Under the pieces are notes generated by a model. It made no database searches. It was not told the DNA's origin and saw only the letters and a program-made list of their open reading frames with translations. A stretch of DNA of 64,000 nucleotides from positions 64,001-128,000 of IMG/VR virus record IMGVR_UViG_3300042988_001121; one strand, written 5' to 3'. The DNA is from a virus. Position numbers and translations under genes: made by a program. Numbering within the stretch: the first letter of the stretch is position 1; every line of letters begins with the position of its first letter. This document shows positions 42,433 to 59,728 of this stretch, piece by piece.

Positions 42433-42856
42433 TTGATGAGCATTCCAAGCAAGCCACGGAATCAATTATGAAAATAAAATGACCGCCTCGGTTTTCTTGA
42501 TAGAAAACTTCATCCCAAATGTAGTATGAGTTGTTACGTAGAGCACGGATTAAAGCCTCGTTGCCACTCCATCCAACTGTTGACATTGATATAAAGTTTT
42601 TGCCATCTTTTTTGTAGCGAGCCATCGTGCCATAAGCCTTTACGCCCCACCAACATTTTTCCAGCATGTCGAATAGCTCGGGAATCATGAACGAAGACCA
42701 ATTCTCGATTGCATCGTACAATTCTTCTGTCGGATAGCCATCTGAATCGAGATACCCATTCACCTCAAGGCTAGCGATGTGGTCGCGAGTGATCTTCATC
42801 TGATCATCAATTCGCGCTTGGATTTCTTCGTCAGTCAGTCGTTTAATTTGACTCAT
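42428..42856 (-). CDS. hypothetical protein
   Basis: MSQIKR...STVGWSGNE..IRAL..W..RGGH. Confidence 0.75.
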   Translation of the reverse strand: MSQIKRLTDEEIQARIDDQMKITRDHIASLEVNGYLDSDGYPTEELYDAIENWSSFMIPELFDMLEKCWWGVKAYGTMARYKKDGKNFISMSTVGWSGNEALIRALRNNSYYIWDEVFYQENRGGHFIFIIDSVACLECSSK

Positions 42857-42912
42857 GTTGATTCCAATAAGTTGTACTTGAACCCTTCCCATGAGCATTC
42901 CAAGCAAGCCAC
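42436..42912. repeat. 22-bp perfect direct repeat (42436-42457 and 42891-42912)
   Basis: ATGAGCATTCCAAGCAAGCCAC at both positions. Confidence 0.9.
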
Positions 42913-42962
42913 AGGTGCATCACCATCGCCTAGTTTAACGGAATGACAGAAGAATTCTTCAT

Positions 42963-44340
42963 TCTTGTTTTAGTAAGGAAACCTAACGACTAAAGATCGT
43001 TAGGAGGAATTGCGTTAAAAATCTTATCTTAAATACGATTATACAACAAACATCCCATTATGTCAACCCAACTTCGCGCCTACAAATACAGACTGTATCC
43101 AGATGTTGCTCAAACAGCAACGCTGGCACAGTTCTTTGGTGCGAAGCGTTGGATTTTCAATCATTTTCTCAATGAACAAAAAACTCGGTTTGATAATAAA
43201 GAAACCCACTTGAGTAACTTTGATTGTAACAAGTTGATTACAGAATTGAAGAAACAAGAAGATACCGATTGGCTTCGTGGGATTGATGATTGGGTCTTAA
43301 AAAGTTCATCAGAAGATTTAAGTGTAGCATACAAAAATTTCTTTGCTTCTATTACAGGAAAACGAAAAGGTCCGAATGTTAAGCCCCCTACCTTCAAGTC
43401 AAAAAATTCCAGACAGAGTTACAGAACTCGTGGCATCAAAATTGATTTTGAGAATAATTTAATTACCGTTCCAAAGATCAAGAGCATCAAGTGTATTATT
43501 CATCGTCAATTCGTAGGAACAATTAAACAAGCAACTGTTTCTAAGAATACTGATGGTCGTTATTATATTTCCATTCTGGTCGATGAAACTATCCAGTTGA
43601 AGCAAATGACTCATCGGGAAGTTGGTATTGACTTTGGGCTTAGAGATTTAGCTATTTTATCAACAGGAGTCAAATTCAATCATCCAGAACAAATGCTTTC
43701 AAGAACCAAGAAAGCATTGAAAAGAGCACAAAGAATCCTTGCTCGTAAAACAAAAGGGTCTAATTCTTATCATAAACAGCGTTTAGTTGTAGCAAAATTG
43801 TATTCAAGACTAACTCGAATGAGGAATGAATATTATCATCTGATTTCTCGTTACTTGGTTAATAATTTTGACGCAATATACCTTGAAGATTTAAACGTCA
43901 ATGGAATGTTGAAGAATCGTAGGTTATCAAGAAAGATACACGAAACCGCTTGGTCTACTTTGAAGAATATGATCAAGTATAAAGCAAATTATGCTGGAAA
44001 GACTGTTCATGAAATCAACCGTTGGCTCCCATCATCCAAGACTTGTTCTTGCTGTGGTTACAAACTTGACAAACTGAATCTCGATGTTCGTGAATGGACT
44101 TGTCCAGTTTGTAACGAGCACCATGACCGTGACCTAAACGCTGCTATAAACATTCTGAATCAAGGTCAAATTGATCTTTATGATTCTAAACAAAATTCCA
44201 GCGCAACACTGGAATTGGAGGCTTCGCCTCCAATGGCTTTGCAGAAACATTCTATGAAAATCGAGAGGTCCAGTTCTAAACGAACTGGTTGGAATGGGGA
44301 GCAAGCAAGCCTAACAGTATTTAGCTGTTAGGTGGTTGAC
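42963..44340 (+). mobile_element. non-autonomous IS200/IS605-family (IS1341-like) element, TnpB only
   Basis: LE hairpin CCTAACGA-ctaaaga-TCGTTAGG; RE hairpin CCTAACAG-tatttag-CTGTTAGG followed by TGGTTGAC; preceded by TCAT. Confidence 0.88.
43060..44331 (+). CDS. tnpB: TnpB RNA-guided endonuclease (IS605 OrfB)
   Basis: RAYKYRLYP HTH; RuvC GIDFG / YLEDL / DRDLNA; Zn finger CSCC..CPVC. Confidence 0.96.
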   Translation: MSTQLRAYKYRLYPDVAQTATLAQFFGAKRWIFNHFLNEQKTRFDNKETHLSNFDCNKLITELKKQEDTDWLRGIDDWVLKSSSEDLSVAYKNFFASITGKRKGPNVKPPTFKSKNSRQSYRTRGIKIDFENNLITVPKIKSIKCIIHRQFVGTIKQATVSKNTDGRYYISILVDETIQLKQMTHREVGIDFGLRDLAILSTGVKFNHPEQMLSRTKKALKRAQRILARKTKGSNSYHKQRLVVAKLYSRLTRMRNEYYHLISRYLVNNFDAIYLEDLNVNGMLKNRRLSRKIHETAWSTLKNMIKYKANYAGKTVHEINRWLPSSKTCSCCGYKLDKLNLDVREWTCPVCNEHHDRDLNAAINILNQGQIDLYDSKQNSSATLELEASPPMALQKHSMKIERSSSKRTGWNGEQASLTVFSC

Positions 44341-44768
44341 AATAAACGTCCCATGAGTCTTTGTGTTGTCGGTAGATCGCGATATCGCGAACACCTTCTT
44401 TATGCCGCATTCGTTCCAGAACTTTTGATGTGTTCTTGCGAGTCTTCAAACTGATTTTAACACAATCTCTGCCAACAGTAAAGTAGATGTAAATACAATA
44501 ACGGATTTTAGGTTTCCTTGCTTTACGTTTCCTTGCAATTTGTTTTCGTGTTAACCGATCATCGGGATCATGGCTCACCGCAATCACGGCAGGATGTGCA
44601 TGCAGCAGAATTTTAGTCATCTGTTCGTCATAGTAAAGATACCCTAGCTTGCATTCGTATCTTTCGCTGTTCCATTCAACAATCGCGTATTTGTTGTCAT
44701 CATAAGCAAGTAACGTGACTTCCTTGATCGAGTGGTCATCTTCCTCGAATGGATAGTCGGTAAAGAAT

Positions 44769-45035
44769 TTACGCATTTCGGTTTAACCTTTCTCTTGCAG
44801 ACATTGCAAAATAAGACCAGTTACCACACTTATCCTCGGTTCGCAAAAGATCACGTGCGGTATAGGAAATGTCTGTCTTACTAAAGCACCGAGCCTCTTG
44901 GTTCAAGATTCCGTTAGTGAAACATCTAACGTGATAAGCACCGTTGATTTTTCTGACCTGAATTTCGTGTTCTACTTCGTCCAACATAACTCGCGAAATT
45001 TGTAATACTGTTTCGTAACGTGGTTTCGTTTTCAT
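44769..45035 (-). CDS. hypothetical protein
   Basis: ATGA overlap with the 3' half of the split gene. Confidence 0.65.
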   Translation of the reverse strand: MKTKPRYETVLQISRVMLDEVEHEIQVRKINGAYHVRCFTNGILNQEARCFSKTDISYTARDLLRTEDKCGNWSYFAMSARERLNRNA

Positions 45036-45101: not shown

Positions 45102-46337
45102 TCATGCCGTTTTATAAAAATCTATAAAACTGACTAGACATTTCAACGAGGTTGCTTTTGGTAACTCCAAAAGACTTACATCCTCTCTATGTCTGTAATC
45201 GGCTGATTCGTCCGATGTGAATCCATAAAGGTCATTCATACCTTTATTGTAAATGTTAACAGCAGCATTCAAGTCTCTATTATGATGGGAACCACAAGAA
45301 GGACAATCCCACTCTCTTATCGATAGCTCCATCTTTTCAATTCTATGACCACAAGAAGAACATGTCTTACTAGAAGGGTAGAAACGATCTATTTTATGGA
45401 AAGTTCTACCTCGCCAATTAGATTTATATGAAATCATTGACACCAATGATGACCATGATGCATCAGATATAGATTTTGATAATTTTCTATTCTTCAGCAT
45501 TCCTTTTATGTTCAAGTCTTCCATTACAATCGTATCATAATTTTTTACAAGCCAAGAACTGATATTGTGGTGAATAAAAGATCGCTGGTTACTAACTTCT
45601 CTGTGAATTCTAGCAACTTTTGTTCTTTGTATTTCCCTTCTATTGGAACCTTCTTGTTTTCTACTAAAGTGCTGCTGTGCGGTTTTTAGCTTCGCTTGGT
45701 TTTTACGAAACCATTTTGGATTAGAGATTTTCATTCCGTTACTAAGAATGCACAAATCTGTTAATCCAAGATCAACACCAATAGTTTTACCTGTTTGTTC
45801 GTAAAGAACTACGTCTTCTTCAACTAGAACAGATACAAAATATTGGTTTGTTTTATTTTTAGAGACAGTAACCGACTTGACCTGCCCATAAAACTTTCTA
45901 TCAATGACCACCTTCAATGGAGACATTTTAGGCAGTTTAATTTTACTGGTATCGAAATTTATGAATTTATTGAAGCCTATAGCCTGCCCCGGTATTCTGA
46001 AAGAATCTGTTGACACGCCCTTTTTCTTAAATTTCATCCTACCAAGTTTTGTTTTCCTTGAAGGGTTAAAATATTGCTTCTTTGTTTCAATGAAATCCAT
46101 GCGTTTTTGCTGAAGCGCATAACTTATTGTATCATTGAGCCAAGAAAACTCAGGCATATCTTTCAATATCTTTTCATCCATCGGTCGGTTCGGACCGTCC
46201 TTGCTATATGAATTGAAATTTGCCACCAGTTGATTCCAAACAAAACGCACGCAACCAAAAGTAGAATCCAAAAATTTAGACTGCTCTTTTGTTGGGTATA
46301 CCCTATATTTGTAGGCTCGAATTTGTTTTGGCATCAT
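45102..46337 (-). CDS. tnpB: TnpB RNA-guided endonuclease (IS607)
   Basis: RAYKYRVYP; GVDLG / VMEDL / NRDLNA; CSSC..CPSC. Confidence 0.96.
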   Translation of the reverse strand: MMPKQIRAYKYRVYPTKEQSKFLDSTFGCVRFVWNQLVANFNSYSKDGPNRPMDEKILKDMPEFSWLNDTISYALQQKRMDFIETKKQYFNPSRKTKLGRMKFKKKGVSTDSFRIPGQAIGFNKFINFDTSKIKLPKMSPLKVVIDRKFYGQVKSVTVSKNKTNQYFVSVLVEEDVVLYEQTGKTIGVDLGLTDLCILSNGMKISNPKWFRKNQAKLKTAQQHFSRKQEGSNRREIQRTKVARIHREVSNQRSFIHHNISSWLVKNYDTIVMEDLNIKGMLKNRKLSKSISDASWSSLVSMISYKSNWRGRTFHKIDRFYPSSKTCSSCGHRIEKMELSIREWDCPSCGSHHNRDLNAAVNIYNKGMNDLYGFTSDESADYRHREDVSLLELPKATSLKCLVSFIDFYKTA

Positions 46338-46362: not shown

Positions 46363-46956
46363 TTATTGTTTGTCTACTTTCAATGTCTCTATTAGTTCAA
46401 TTGTTTTTCTCTTACTGCGCCGTTTACCATAAATTCTGGCGCAGAAAGATGTTATCTCTGACACGAAATCTTGTACGATATCTTCATTCCCGACAGAAAC
46501 TTGGTTCACGACTTCTATTTCTTTTTTATTCGCACGAAGCATAGTTTCTATGTAATTAAAACCAAACCGAGTCAGTCGGTCTTTGTGTTCAACGACAATC
46601 TTGGTAAAATCTTGTTCGGATAATAACTTTTGTAATTTTGGGCGCGAATCGTTAAGACCAGAACCAAATTCTGTTATTACATCATGAATTTTATATCCGC
46701 GAGCAGTGCAATATGAAATCATCCTATCTTTTTGAGATTCTAGATTAGTTTTATTGACTGTGCTACTAACACGACAGTATATAACGATTTTTTCTTCGCT
46801 TTTCTCTTTGACGCCGATAAATTTATTATATGTTTCTGTGTCAACAAAATTCATACCGCCGATTTTATGGAACTTTAGTTTACCGGCAGATTTCCAGTTC
46901 CATAAAGTCATTTTGGTAACACCTAGGTCTTTAGCAAATTTACTCAACTTAATCAT
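46363..46956 (-). CDS. tnpA: IS607 TnpA serine recombinase with N-terminal MerR-like HTH
   Basis: LGVTKMTLWNW HTH; IYCRVSS, EFGSGLNDSRP, VEHKDRLTRFGF, SFCARIYG. Confidence 0.96.
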   Translation of the reverse strand: MIKLSKFAKDLGVTKMTLWNWKSAGKLKFHKIGGMNFVDTETYNKFIGVKEKSEEKIVIYCRVSSTVNKTNLESQKDRMISYCTARGYKIHDVITEFGSGLNDSRPKLQKLLSEQDFTKIVVEHKDRLTRFGFNYIETMLRANKKEIEVVNQVSVGNEDIVQDFVSEITSFCARIYGKRRSKRKTIELIETLKVDKQ

Positions 46957-47193
46957 AAACTTTTGGTAAATATTATATAGTTTTTGGTTGGATTATTTAT
47001 TTATATATTATATTCAGGCAATCCGTTGGAATAAACGCCGCGCTTCCAATGATATCCAGAAGTATCGGTGACTTCAACAACTTCCCCGCATCGAGTCACA
47101 TAATTTCCTGCGCCATCAATGATTCGAGGAAAAGAAATGAAAAACGCTTCATACGGTATGTTTGCCACGATAAACTCCTGTTTTGTTGAATCT

Positions 47194-56525: not shown

Positions 56526-57101
56526 TTATTTCGTCAACTCAGTTATGTCCGTGAATCTACGCGAAACATAACCACAGTTCTTTGTGTAATGTTTATCATT
56601 AGCAATTCGCTTAAACACATCAATTGCCTTTTCATCACGACTGCATGGAAACGATTCTCCGCACGTTCCGCCTTTCCATGAACCTTTATCCTCCCCTATC
56701 TCGTGATTATAAAGCACCTCTAGGTTGATATAGATTTTCTTTTTCAAGAACAAACGAAGGAATTTGAACAGTCCTGTTCCTCGTCTGTATTCGGCATAAG
56801 TCTTGTGGCACTGCGCCTCGATGATGGTTCCATCAAAGTCACGGAACTGGATGACAGTTTTCTTTACTGCGTTCCTTGCAGCTTCCAGCGACTTAAAATC
56901 AATTCTACCGTTCGGAAGATCACTCACATTCGCAAACTGGCTACCATCTTCATTCAGAATCAGACACTTAGTACGATCTTCTTCGACCCACGGAAACTGT
57001 TTACACCAAGATTTCGATCCTTCCTTGCCGCCCCAACTACCATTTTGAATTCCGTAACGTATGTGGATGTAGTTGTCATAAAGGGTCAACGAGTATCGCA
57101 T
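56526..57101 (-). CDS. hypothetical protein
   Basis: GEDKGSWKGGT motif. Confidence 0.75.
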   Translation of the reverse strand: MRYSLTLYDNYIHIRYGIQNGSWGGKEGSKSWCKQFPWVEEDRTKCLILNEDGSQFANVSDLPNGRIDFKSLEAARNAVKKTVIQFRDFDGTIIEAQCHKTYAEYRRGTGLFKFLRLFLKKKIYINLEVLYNHEIGEDKGSWKGGTCGESFPCSRDEKAIDVFKRIANDKHYTKNCGYVSRRFTDITELTK

Positions 57102-57116
57102 CTAAATATGTCTTTC

Positions 57117-57124
57117 TATAAATA
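57117..57124 (+). promoter_or_regulatory. T4-type late promoter consensus inside the element left end
   Basis: TATAAATA about 35 bp before the tnpB start. Confidence 0.6.
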
Positions 57125-57158: not shown

Positions 57159-58361
57159 ATGCAACACAAGGCATATAAGTTTAGACTGTACCCAACGAAA
57201 GTTCAAGAAGCTCTCTTGAACCAAACTTTTGGGTGCGTTCGTTTCTTATGGAACCAACATGTTGCTGCTTTCAATAGTTTTTCTTCCTTCGGTCCAAACA
57301 AAATTGTAACATCAAAACTATTGAAGGACACAGAAGAATTTTCTTGGTTGAATTCTGTTTCTGCGGCTGCTCTGCAACAAAAAGATAACGATTTTTCTGA
57401 ATTTAAGAAGCAGTTTTTCTCCAAAACACGTAAAAAGAAAATTGAGCGCCCTAAATTCAAAAAGAAAGGACAGAAAGACTCTTATCGTCTTCCTAATCAA
57501 AAGTTTACTTTGGACCAAGAAACAAAAAGAATTCGACTCGAAAAAATTGGTAAAGTGAAAATAGTTTTAGACAAAACAATACCAGAAGGCGCTAAGTTTT
57601 TATCGGTAACAATAACAAAAAATCAAACCGGTGAGTATTACGCATCTGTTTTGGTTGAACAAGAAATAAGATGTAAGGAAACAACAGGAAATAGTATTGG
57701 TATAGACCTCGGGTTTATTGATTTGATGACTCTATCAAATGGAATGGTTATACGCAACCCAAGGTGGTTTCGTAAAAATCAAGCGAAGCTAAAAAGAAAA
57801 CAAAAATCATTAAGTAGAAAAAAGATAGGCTCTCGTAGGAGAGAAAAACAAAGAATTGTTGTTGCAAAACAGCATCTAAAAGTTGCTCGACAGCGAGAAT
57901 GGTATCATCATCAAATTTCATCGTGGTTGGTTAATAATTTTGACACTATTTGTATGGAAGACTTGAATTTGAATGGAATGAAAAAATTTCTAGGAAAATC
58001 TGTCAATGATGCCGGTCTTTCTAATCTAATGAATAAAATTGAGTATAAATCTAAGTGGTACGGAAGAACCTTCCATAAAGTGGATAGATTCTTTGCATCC
58101 TCAAAAACATGTTCTTCTTGTGGCAATAAAACAGCGTTTGGTATGGATGTGCGAGAATGGACATGTCAGGCGTGTGGTACATTCCACGACAGAGATTTGA
58201 ATGCATCAATAAACATTTTGAAAAAAGGTCTTAGTGACCTTTATCAATATACTTCGGCTGAGTTAACCGAAGTCATTGAACGTGGAGAAGTCGTAAGACC
58301 TAGATTGGGTGAAATTCATCCAATGGTGGCTACTTCTATGAAGCGTTTAGCGAAACTGTAA
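57159..58361 (+). CDS. tnpB: TnpB RNA-guided endonuclease
   Basis: KAYKFRLYP; GIDLG / CMEDL / DRDLNA; CSSC..CQAC. Confidence 0.96.
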   Translation: MQHKAYKFRLYPTKVQEALLNQTFGCVRFLWNQHVAAFNSFSSFGPNKIVTSKLLKDTEEFSWLNSVSAAALQQKDNDFSEFKKQFFSKTRKKKIERPKFKKKGQKDSYRLPNQKFTLDQETKRIRLEKIGKVKIVLDKTIPEGAKFLSVTITKNQTGEYYASVLVEQEIRCKETTGNSIGIDLGFIDLMTLSNGMVIRNPRWFRKNQAKLKRKQKSLSRKKIGSRRREKQRIVVAKQHLKVARQREWYHHQISSWLVNNFDTICMEDLNLNGMKKFLGKSVNDAGLSNLMNKIEYKSKWYGRTFHKVDRFFASSKTCSSCGNKTAFGMDVREWTCQACGTFHDRDLNASINILKKGLSDLYQYTSAELTEVIERGEVVRPRLGEIHPMVATSMKRLAKL

Positions 58362-58539: not shown

Positions 58540-58724
58540 TCGCTCCGTAGTTGATCAATGTGCATCAAAATAAATGCACTGGCAATAACAATGTTCAATA
58601 CGGGCGCAATCGCGAACAGCAACCCAATGAGCAATGTGTTATCACTATAGTCAATGTAATCATGATATATTGCACGAATTACGTAGGCAAAACAGATTGC
58701 CATCGGGATAAAGTAGTAAATCAT
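58536..58724 (-). CDS. small two-TM membrane protein
   Basis: Two hydrophobic segments. Confidence 0.65.
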   Translation of the reverse strand: MIYYFIPMAICFAYVIRAIYHDYIDYSDNTLLIGLLFAIAPVLNIVIASAFILMHIDQLRSE

Positions 58725-59728
58725 TTTTGTTTCAACAGATATTCGTTACTGATTGACTTGAATGAAACCCGGTCATCCGAGTACAAGGTAAAAACCAGCC
58801 CTTCACGAAGAACACCGGATTTATTCAGAACTGTCTTACCATTCGCCATATCCAGAATGTCATCCAGAGACTTACCCGTAAGCGACAACTTATCAAAGAT
58901 GACAGGAACCATGTCAAGACACAGATCACGGCACACCTTCTGTTTTTCTTCTACTGACAAGTAACGCTGTGCATCAATGTCGAATACATCGAATACTCGA
59001 AGAACATAAGAATCCAGTTTATAGATGTTGCCCGAGATACCGGGACCGCACTGTTCGCCTTGGATCGCAAGATTACGACCATATGCACGAAGTTTTTCTT
59101 CTAGTGCATACTTACGTGCAGTGTTCCAGAAAGTATTATCATCCGAATATTTCAGATCAAGATTTCGTGAAGCAACTCCAAATTCATTGTTATTGAGATA
59201 TGCCGTGAAAGACTGACCCTCAAGTTTCTCGGTAACTTGCCATTCACCTGTCTGAATCAAAACAAGAACATCTTGATAAACCGTCTGGATACGCGCCTGA
59301 TCTGTTTTCTGAATGAAGGATGGGAACGACCCTTTGGTATCTGCCGAAGTGAATTCTTGTGGAGGCTCCCATTTCTGGATACCTAACACGTCTGTCAAAT
59401 CTTGACCGATGGTCGATCCTTCTGCTAAGGTAATTGGCAGCAACAGACCCTGACTCAATGCACCACGCAATTTAACGGTACGAAGTCGCTCTCCTGATAC
59501 TTCATTATAGACTCGGGGAGTTTTTCCTTTTGTTAGGAATGGAGCAAGTGCTGTTGGAATCCAGCTATCAATCTGACAATAGATAACGGTATCGCCTACT
59601 TTATAAACACCTTTTTTGTCAACTACCCACCAACCTTGTACACGGTATTGACAAATTGCATCAGCATCGGGAATGTCCCGGATTTCTTCGATACGAACTA
59701 CTTCTGCTAGTTTACGTTTCATTTCCAT
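58721..59728 (-). CDS. RNA ligase, Rnl2/DRB0094 family
   Basis: VTEKLEGQS, IQGEQCGPGI, FDVF, REGLVF, FKSISNEYL. Confidence 0.93.
   Translation of the reverse strand: MEMKRKLAEVVRIEEIRDIPDADAICQYRVQGWWVVDKKGVYKVGDTVIYCQIDSWIPTALAPFLTKGKTPRVYNEVSGERLRTVKLRGALSQGLLLPITLAEGSTIGQDLTDVLGIQKWEPPQEFTSADTKGSFPSFIQKTDQARIQTVYQDVLVLIQTGEWQVTEKLEGQSFTAYLNNNEFGVASRNLDLKYSDDNTFWNTARKYALEEKLRAYGRNLAIQGEQCGPGISGNIYKLDSYVLRVFDVFDIDAQRYLSVEEKQKVCRDLCLDMVPVIFDKLSLTGKSLDDILDMANGKTVLNKSGVLREGLVFTLYSDDRVSFKSISNEYLLKQK

Follow-up and report, generated by a model that had tools for sequence, protein, structure and literature searches.

A TnpB-only IS200/IS605-family element with a predicted guide RNA in a small gene of a T4-like phage

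IS608 of Helicobacter pylori carries a hairpin at each end with a 4-nucleotide (nt) guide on its 5' side, has a 19-nt spacing at its left end, and makes no target duplication (PMC3201880, PMC5934647). Its left guide (GL), AAAG, lies at +16 to +19, with A+16 pairing with T-3 and A+17 with T-4 (PMC5934647); the left cleavage site (CL) is TTAC, and the right cleavage site (CR), TCAA, goes with the right guide (GR) GAAT (PMC5934647, PMC3201880). In ISDra2 of Deinococcus radiodurans the target-adjacent motif (TAM) is the 5-nt TTGAT, and about 16 nt of the DNA that follows the right end enters the guide RNA (PMC8612924). For bacteria, homing by the TnpB of IS605 elements is an established process (PMC10055086, PMC8612924); between co-infecting phages it has been discussed, only as a possibility, as 'non-restorative homing' (PMC13565253). 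Here we describe a TnpB element at positions 42963-44340 of a 64,000-nt stretch of viral DNA (hereafter the window), which corresponds to bases 64001-128000 of a 178,209-bp IMG/VR virus record.

The record has terminal repeats, an estimated completeness of 100%, and a gene whose product is a major capsid protein of the T4 type (Pfam Gp23, 405 bits). On the strength of that match the genome is that of an uncultivated T4-like phage, an identity that would imply very active recombination. Within it, the 1,378-bp element is supported by its sequence as a TnpB-only, IS1341-style, non-autonomous member of the IS200/IS605 family lying in a small early-region gene. None of its components is new, and TnpB is a frequent find in phages, with homologues in 429 of 50,697 GenBank phage records and at more than 500 IMG/VR loci. 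The element resembles IS1341-type (tnpB-only) derivatives and the TnpB genes of cultured phages in having tnpB as its only gene and IS605-type ends; it differs in that no cultured-phage TnpB is closer than about 40% to its protein (TnpB1). One such case leaves the present picture of IS200/IS605 and TnpB as it was. It does make a clear natural example, in that the element's ends and omega-RNA scaffold, the TAM, the guide, and the targeted gene are all readable from the sequence, and covariation in related elements provides a cross-check.

Along the plus strand, the LE (left end; 42963-43059) and its flank read TTCAT/TCTTGTTTTAGTAAG-GAAA-CCTAACGA-CTAAAGA-TCGTTAGG-AGGAATTGCG, and the right end (RE) reads GGGGAGCAAG-CAAG-CCTAACAG-TATTTAG-CTGTTAGG-TGGT-TGAC/AATAAACG, the slash marking the boundary of the element. 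The LE hairpin (CCTAACGA-CTAAAGA-TCGTTAGG) occupies 42982-43004, with GAAA (42978-42981) just 5' of it and the box AGGAATTGCG at 43005-43014. The RE hairpin (CCTAACAG-TATTTAG-CTGTTAGG) occupies 44310-44332, with CAAG (44306-44309) just 5' of it and TGAC (44337-44340) as the element terminus. A preliminary description of this DNA had reported the element with these ends, and both were confirmed: the two hairpins share a CCTAAC stem, the stems being identical on direct reading; CAAG and TGAC stand at the RE foot and the terminus as had been claimed; and the coordinates agree with GAAA at the LE foot and TCAT (42959-42962) exactly 19 nt upstream of the LE hairpin. This distance, counted from the left cleavage point after 42962 to the hairpin foot at 42982, is the IS608 spacing (PMC3201880). 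The flanks, ...TTCTTCAT on the left and AATAAACG... on the right, have no repeat in common, so there is no target-site duplication, and the hairpins are subterminal at both ends.

The IS608 pairs give a rule in which the first guide base pairs with the second base of the cleavage site (g1:c2), g2 with c1, and g4 with c4, while g3 and c3 meet as A.A; this rule fits both IS608 ends. At both ends of the window element (TCAT/GAAA on the left, TGAC/CAAG on the right) all four positions satisfy it. Because a set of three Watson-Crick pairs, each in its fixed position, would arise at both ends with a probability of about (1/64)^2, and because the right ends of 16 of 17 relatives obey the rule in five different pair combinations (L042 is the sole failure), the pairing is more than chance. 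The right-end pair is CAAG/TGAC in the window, L008, L020, L022, and L024; AAAG/TTAC in L019; AAAA/TTAT in L021; GAAA/TCAT in L031, L041, L048, and L054; and GAAG/TCAC in Methanolobus and its relatives. At the left end, where the cleavage site lies 18-19 nt upstream, the pairs are GAAA/TCAT (window, L018, L019, L020), GAAT/TCAA (L008), and AAAA/TTAT (L026, L041). The earlier assignment of CAAG to TGAC and of GAAA to TCAT is thus borne out both by the published rule and by covariation, and both boundaries are fixed independently of the gene-restoration argument given below. Pairs of IS608 itself recur in relatives: L008 has the TCAA/GAAT of the IS608 right end at its left end, and L019 has TTAC/AAAG at its right end. 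The window element differs from IS608 in lacking tnpA, in a right cleavage site that ends 8 nt rather than 10 nt after the hairpin, in its cleavage sites (TCAT and TGAC), and in a family-specific loop, TCTTTAG, that is inverted at its LE.

The relatives used in these comparisons encode TnpBs 59-92% identical to TnpB1 and were found in IMG/VR, in Joint Genome Institute (JGI) metagenomes, and in a collection of 5.8 billion proteins; the proteins with 92%, 83%, and 81% identity are P0049, P0051, and P0050. They derive from freshwater metagenomes, many lie on phage contigs of 79-244 kb, and every member of the clade encountered was on a large contig, either of an uncultivated phage or from a metagenome. 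Among GenBank phages (50,697 records), no copy of TnpB1 above about 40% identity was found and megablast with the element region gave no match. A DNA pattern search with the right end gave no hit in the species genomes and a single contig, that of L008, in IMG/VR.

The ends of the relatives follow a common plan, in which a variable, co-varying 8-bp stem encloses the conserved loop TCTTTAG at both ends, with AKGAATTGC 3' of the hairpin at the left end and TAGT plus the cleavage tetranucleotide at the right end. The stems vary but the loop is strictly conserved, so it is probably the loop that the transposase reads. In the window copy, the LE loop CTAAAGA is the reverse complement of TCTTTAG, which the left and right ends of all relatives carry, and taking the reverse complement of CCTAACGA-TCTTTAG-TCGTTAGG yields the LE hairpin exactly. 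The two loops are therefore opposite, and the top strand does not present both hairpins to a Y1 transposase in the same orientation. The ends had been called self-consistent; this is true of their pairing and stems, but not wholly so for a transposase. The inverted loop looks like a secondary change in the window copy and gives no ground for excluding the element from IS200/IS605. Judging from IS608 structures, the flipped loop may impair excision of this copy by transposase. The inversion takes in the loop and the two loop-proximal stem pairs of the hairpin at 42982-43004, as though intrastrand template switching at this palindrome had turned them over.

The 5-nt left flank is TTCAT in the window (42958-42962, in flanking DNA outside the element), L018, L019, and L020, and TTCAA in L008, whose GL is GAAT. 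Given this conservation, and by analogy to the 5-nt TTGAT of ISDra2, the TAM is probably TTCAT. The TCAT predicted earlier is in the right place but is likely just the 3' four bases of this longer motif. Insertion sites differ among the window, L008, L019, L020, and a right-end stump elsewhere in the same genome (49243-49295, described below). At L019 (2915-2935) the TAM, TTTCAT, is the reverse complement of the neighbouring gene's start, ATGAAA, and the element abuts the ATG. At L020 (2860-2880) the element adjoins or sits within a truncated IS607-type serine recombinase gene, in what looks like nested insertions.

The tnpB gene (43060-44331, plus strand) is intact and encodes 423 aa with HTH_OrfB_IS605, OrfB_IS605, and Cas12f1-like_TNB domains, all above the Pfam cut-offs. 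Its closest characterised counterpart is ISDra2 TnpB (structures 8H1J, 8BF8, and 8EXA), which matches over residues 6-369 at about 40% identity (E 3e-68 against 8H1J/8BF8). The CxxC...CxxC zinc finger is aligned, and the three RuvC acidic residues noted previously were verified as D191, E276, and D358, which align with D191, E278, and D361 of ISDra2. Likeness to ISDra2 extends to the D-E-D triad, the zinc finger, an RNA scaffold that runs over the 3' end of tnpB to the right boundary, and the expected 5-nt T-rich TAM (TTGAT and TTCAT, respectively). In contrast, ISDra2 has tnpA and resides in a bacterial chromosome, whereas the window element has no TnpA, lies in a T4-like phage, and has a predicted RNA without an Rfam match.

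Comparison with L008, an element of the same length (1,378 bp) whose TnpB is 82% identical, gave dN/dS (the ratio of nonsynonymous to synonymous substitution rates) of 0.13 at a dS of about 0.92. This low ratio at such divergence indicates that the tnpB lineage is kept by purifying selection in phage DNA. The ratio was 0.105 for residues 1-370 and 0.36 for the C-terminal tail (residues 371-423), where gene and RNA scaffold overlap. The left end contains a late-promoter-like TTAAATA (43029-43035), and a TAAATA motif precedes the ATG in all close relatives. On the minus strand, a perfect sigma-70 promoter (43038-43066; TTGACA, 17 nt, TATAAT; 12/12) overlaps the tnpB start and leads out of the LE towards phage genes downstream. 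It may counteract polarity caused by the insertion or be there by chance; its -10 hexamer is not conserved in L008.

A consensus fold was derived from the last 200 nt of nine elements. It comprises 48 pairs in eight helices, with compensatory changes in 32 of the 48; 96.5% of cells were paired, compared with 30-42% when partners were slid by 1-3 columns, and none of 500 shuffles reached the observed values. In the window the helices lie at 44195-44215, 44216-44232, 44236-42/44301-06, 44248-54/44290-96, 44260-69, 44270-88, and 44309-33, the last being the RE hairpin. The minimum free energy fold of the window sequence taken by itself has the same structure (-53 kcal/mol, z = -4.5), and a covariance model built in this work scores 140 bits at this site. 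The predicted omega-RNA (reRNA) scaffold, at about 44190-44340 on the plus strand (150 nt), overlaps the 3' end of tnpB, where the C-terminal tail is poorly conserved, as well as the RE with its GR (CAAG) and CR (TGAC), and stops at the right boundary of the element, like the ISDra2 reRNA. Searches of Rfam with this region and with the window found no family match.

Because the scaffold ends at the boundary, the position rule of ISDra2 places the predicted 16-nt guide template at 44341-44356 (AATAAACGTCCCATGA), in the right flank, where it runs antisense to the interrupted gene (codons 140-145). The 17-mer guide read from the same flank in the preliminary description equals this template plus one base. 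A second guide target within the phage was considered and rejected, as the best other matches have at least three mismatches, lack a TAM, and are as expected by chance. Apart from the 53-nt stump, a covariance-model search of the phage found no other copy of the guide RNA; TnpB1 therefore appears to have no orphan guides, and the other two TnpBs of this phage (see below) would use different RNAs.

Excision of 42963-44340 (1,378 bp, or 1 modulo 3) joins 145 codons (44776-44341) to 36 (42962-42856). As had been proposed, this restores an in-frame minus-strand gene of 181 codons, whose first 145 codons lie at 44341-44776 and whose displaced last 36 codons and stop lie at 42853-42962; the stop, TGA (42855-42853), forms an ATGA overlap with the start of the next gene. 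Of the three frames in the left flank, the one needed is the only one open, the other two meeting stops after 0 and 10 codons. Frame restoration by itself, however, places the junction no better than to about 2 nt, and the C-termini of the homologues do not align with the displaced 36 residues, a caveat on the restored frame. As it now stands, the open reading frame reaches 44321, with the RE supplying CQPPNS and a stop, and gives a product of 151 aa. A recoded 'rescue patch' for the displaced gene end was rejected, since the RE supplies just these six unrelated codons.

The interrupted gene has no Pfam or PHROG family match and is fast-evolving. A word-indexed search of the 5.8 billion proteins returned only the gene itself, and tblastn with its N-terminal 145 aa found nothing in IMG/VR. 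A full HMMER search recovered distant homologues only (at most 39% identity across full-length proteins), mostly 164-198 aa long and with a conserved N-terminal domain of about 100 aa in common. The insertion lies beyond this domain, so the truncated 151-aa product may still work. The empty allele, a check that had been proposed beforehand, was sought as the exact 20-mer junction (TTCTTCAT/AATAAACG) and had no match in IMG/VR; the neighbouring 88-aa gene has no close relative there. The displaced frame reads VACLECS from a 22-bp sequence (42891-42912) that recurs as a perfect direct repeat at 42436-42457, where it encodes this peptide again, now at the 3' end of the following gene. These two genes are adjacent and unrelated; the repeat shared by their 3' ends suggests that recombination at this sequence brought in the gene between the copies.

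Neither the window nor the whole 178,209-bp genome has a PF01797 match above cut-off, in agreement with the earlier statement that Y1 TnpA is absent, and the element is therefore non-autonomous (IS1341-style). Y1 transposase was likewise not found on four of five relatives' contigs. The description of the element as 'solo' holds as regards TnpA, but the phage carries two more TnpB genes. In a 59%-identical relative (L179/L022; IMGVR_UViG_3300036715_000153, 77995-78150), a 58-aa Y1 TnpA stump lies between the left hairpin and tnpB. It matches Pfam Y1_Tnp positions 70-121 (37.6 bits), which indicates that the lineage descends from a full IS605-type element.

The preliminary description had left two fates for the element, mobilisation in trans or immobility. 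Both keep some weight below, but they omit a third, TnpA-independent homing between co-infecting phages, and this is the one we favour. The best overall explanation, to which we assign a probability of roughly 0.6, is that this TnpA-less element, with a selected TnpB and an omega-RNA, persists by homing between co-infecting phages. Arrival would have been through 'peel and paste' integration catalysed by Y1 TnpA, on the 3' side of TTCAT, as suggested by the family rules and by related elements at different sites behind the same motif. Excision by transposase would now be unlikely, the phage having no TnpA and the LE loop being flipped. TnpB, perhaps expressed from the late-promoter-like TTAAATA in the left end, would bind an RNA of about 165 nt made up of the scaffold (44190-44340) and about 16 nt of flank (AATAAACGTCCCATGA). 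The complex would cut DNA in which TTCAT precedes a match to the guide, that is, the uninterrupted allele in a co-infecting relative or the donor joint after excision, and recombinational repair from the element-bearing genome would copy the element in. The resident copy would be spared, as it has TTGAC, not TTCAT, before the guide-matching DNA.

The free-standing Seg and Mob homing endonucleases of T-even phages resemble this proposed mode only, in that a nuclease cuts the allele lacking its gene in a co-infecting relative and is copied by recombination (PMC13565253). Recognition here would be RNA-guided rather than protein-based and the proteins are unrelated, so the likeness is one of analogy and not of family membership. 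The element adds to the evidence for TnpB lineages being retained by selection in large lytic phages that have no transposase. If homing between co-infecting phages is indeed at work, RNA-guided transposon homing would extend from bacterial chromosomes to virus populations.

Several points weigh against this explanation. Homing alone makes no new sites, and since the family occupies different sites, a transposase must have acted on the lineage fairly recently. The expression signals are unconvincing: no clear Shine-Dalgarno sequence lies 5' of tnpB, and CTTAAATA, the promoter motif there, matches TATAAATA only weakly. The RE loop, TATTTAG, differs by one change from the consensus TCTTTAG. The TAM and the guide are positional predictions, and any modification of its DNA by this phage could block TnpB.

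The element could also still be an active transposon, mobilised in trans by Y1 TnpA from the host chromosome or from another element present in the infected cell, with TnpB serving only to restore the donor copy once the element has been excised (classical restorative homing). We consider this unlikely, if deserving of attention. It would account for ends that both fit the cleavage-site/guide rule with IS608-like spacing, for related elements at several sites, each 3' of TTCAT or TTCAA, and for the second right-end stump in the same genome, and the TnpA stump in the relative implies that the lineage once had TnpA. The phage itself, however, has none; the best match to TnpB1 across 185,579 species genomes has only about 42% identity, which leaves no matching host element in sight; and the inversion of the LE loop relative to TCTTTAG should, by inference from IS608 structures, disturb strand-specific hairpin recognition.

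Rather improbable, in our judgement, is an immobile relic, a dead-end insertion not yet decayed, whose TnpB and RNA would have no present function in the phage. Absence of the transposase, the flipped LE loop and the mismatch in the RE loop, the poor expression signals, and a largely deleted copy elsewhere in the genome, which implies that such elements decay here, would all suit a relic. Decay is nonetheless not what the rest of the element displays: the 423-codon reading frame is intact with all catalytic and zinc residues, the seven omega-RNA helices are all preserved in the window copy, and, measured against a second phage copy that lacks TnpA, dN/dS is 0.13 at a dS of about 0.9. The idea of a domesticated weapon, in which TnpBs are kept mainly to destroy rival genomes with the uninterrupted allele (marker exclusion without copying), seems very improbable, for although the phage has three intact TnpB genes with different ends within 15 kb, an apparently phage-restricted lineage under purifying selection, and a guide that matches phage coding sequence, homing predicts the same anatomy and the fast-evolving, almost ORFan target gene would leave few rivals with a matching 16-mer.

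Homing between co-infecting phages can be taken further, to a proposal that we hold tentatively and at somewhat under even odds: a phage-restricted TnpB lineage, its transposase given up, would move from one co-infecting T4-like phage to another solely by acting as an RNA-guided homing endonuclease, expressed from a phage late-type promoter, and three different TnpB elements within 15 kb would mark a hotspot of RNA-guided gene drives.

The earlier insertion referred to above is represented by a 53-nt right-end stump outside the window (genome G000:C1:49243-49295, minus strand; locus L002, 1501-1553), which is 94% identical to the RE and ends in TTGAC. By its sequence it is the relic of an earlier insertion, the remainder of that element having been deleted, and a 365-aa ligase-like gene ends within it, drawing on it for its final codons and stop.

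The other two TnpB proteins are 41-43% identical to TnpB1. TnpB2 (45102-46337, minus strand; 411 aa, intact, 41% identity to TnpB1) lies directly downstream of a gene for a 197-aa serine recombinase (46363-46956, minus strand; Pfam Resolvase), and the two form an IS607-type unit 0.76 kb to the right of the element. Mobilisation of the element by this neighbouring recombinase was rejected, since the recombinase belongs to its own IS607-type unit and the element ends are IS605-type single-stranded DNA hairpins. An IS607 element has its serine-recombinase TnpA inside the same element, whereas the Resolvase gene here lies outside. By the IS607-type unit, TATAAATA occurs at 46998-47005 on the minus strand. 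TnpB3 (57159-58361, plus strand; 400 aa) lies 13 kb from the element. It has TATAAATA at 57117-57124 and adjoins a homologue of Acb3, an inhibitor of the cyclic-oligonucleotide-based antiphage signalling system (CBASS) (56526-57101, minus strand; Pfam PF25187, E 9e-26), and an RNA ligase gene lies nearby at 58721-59728.

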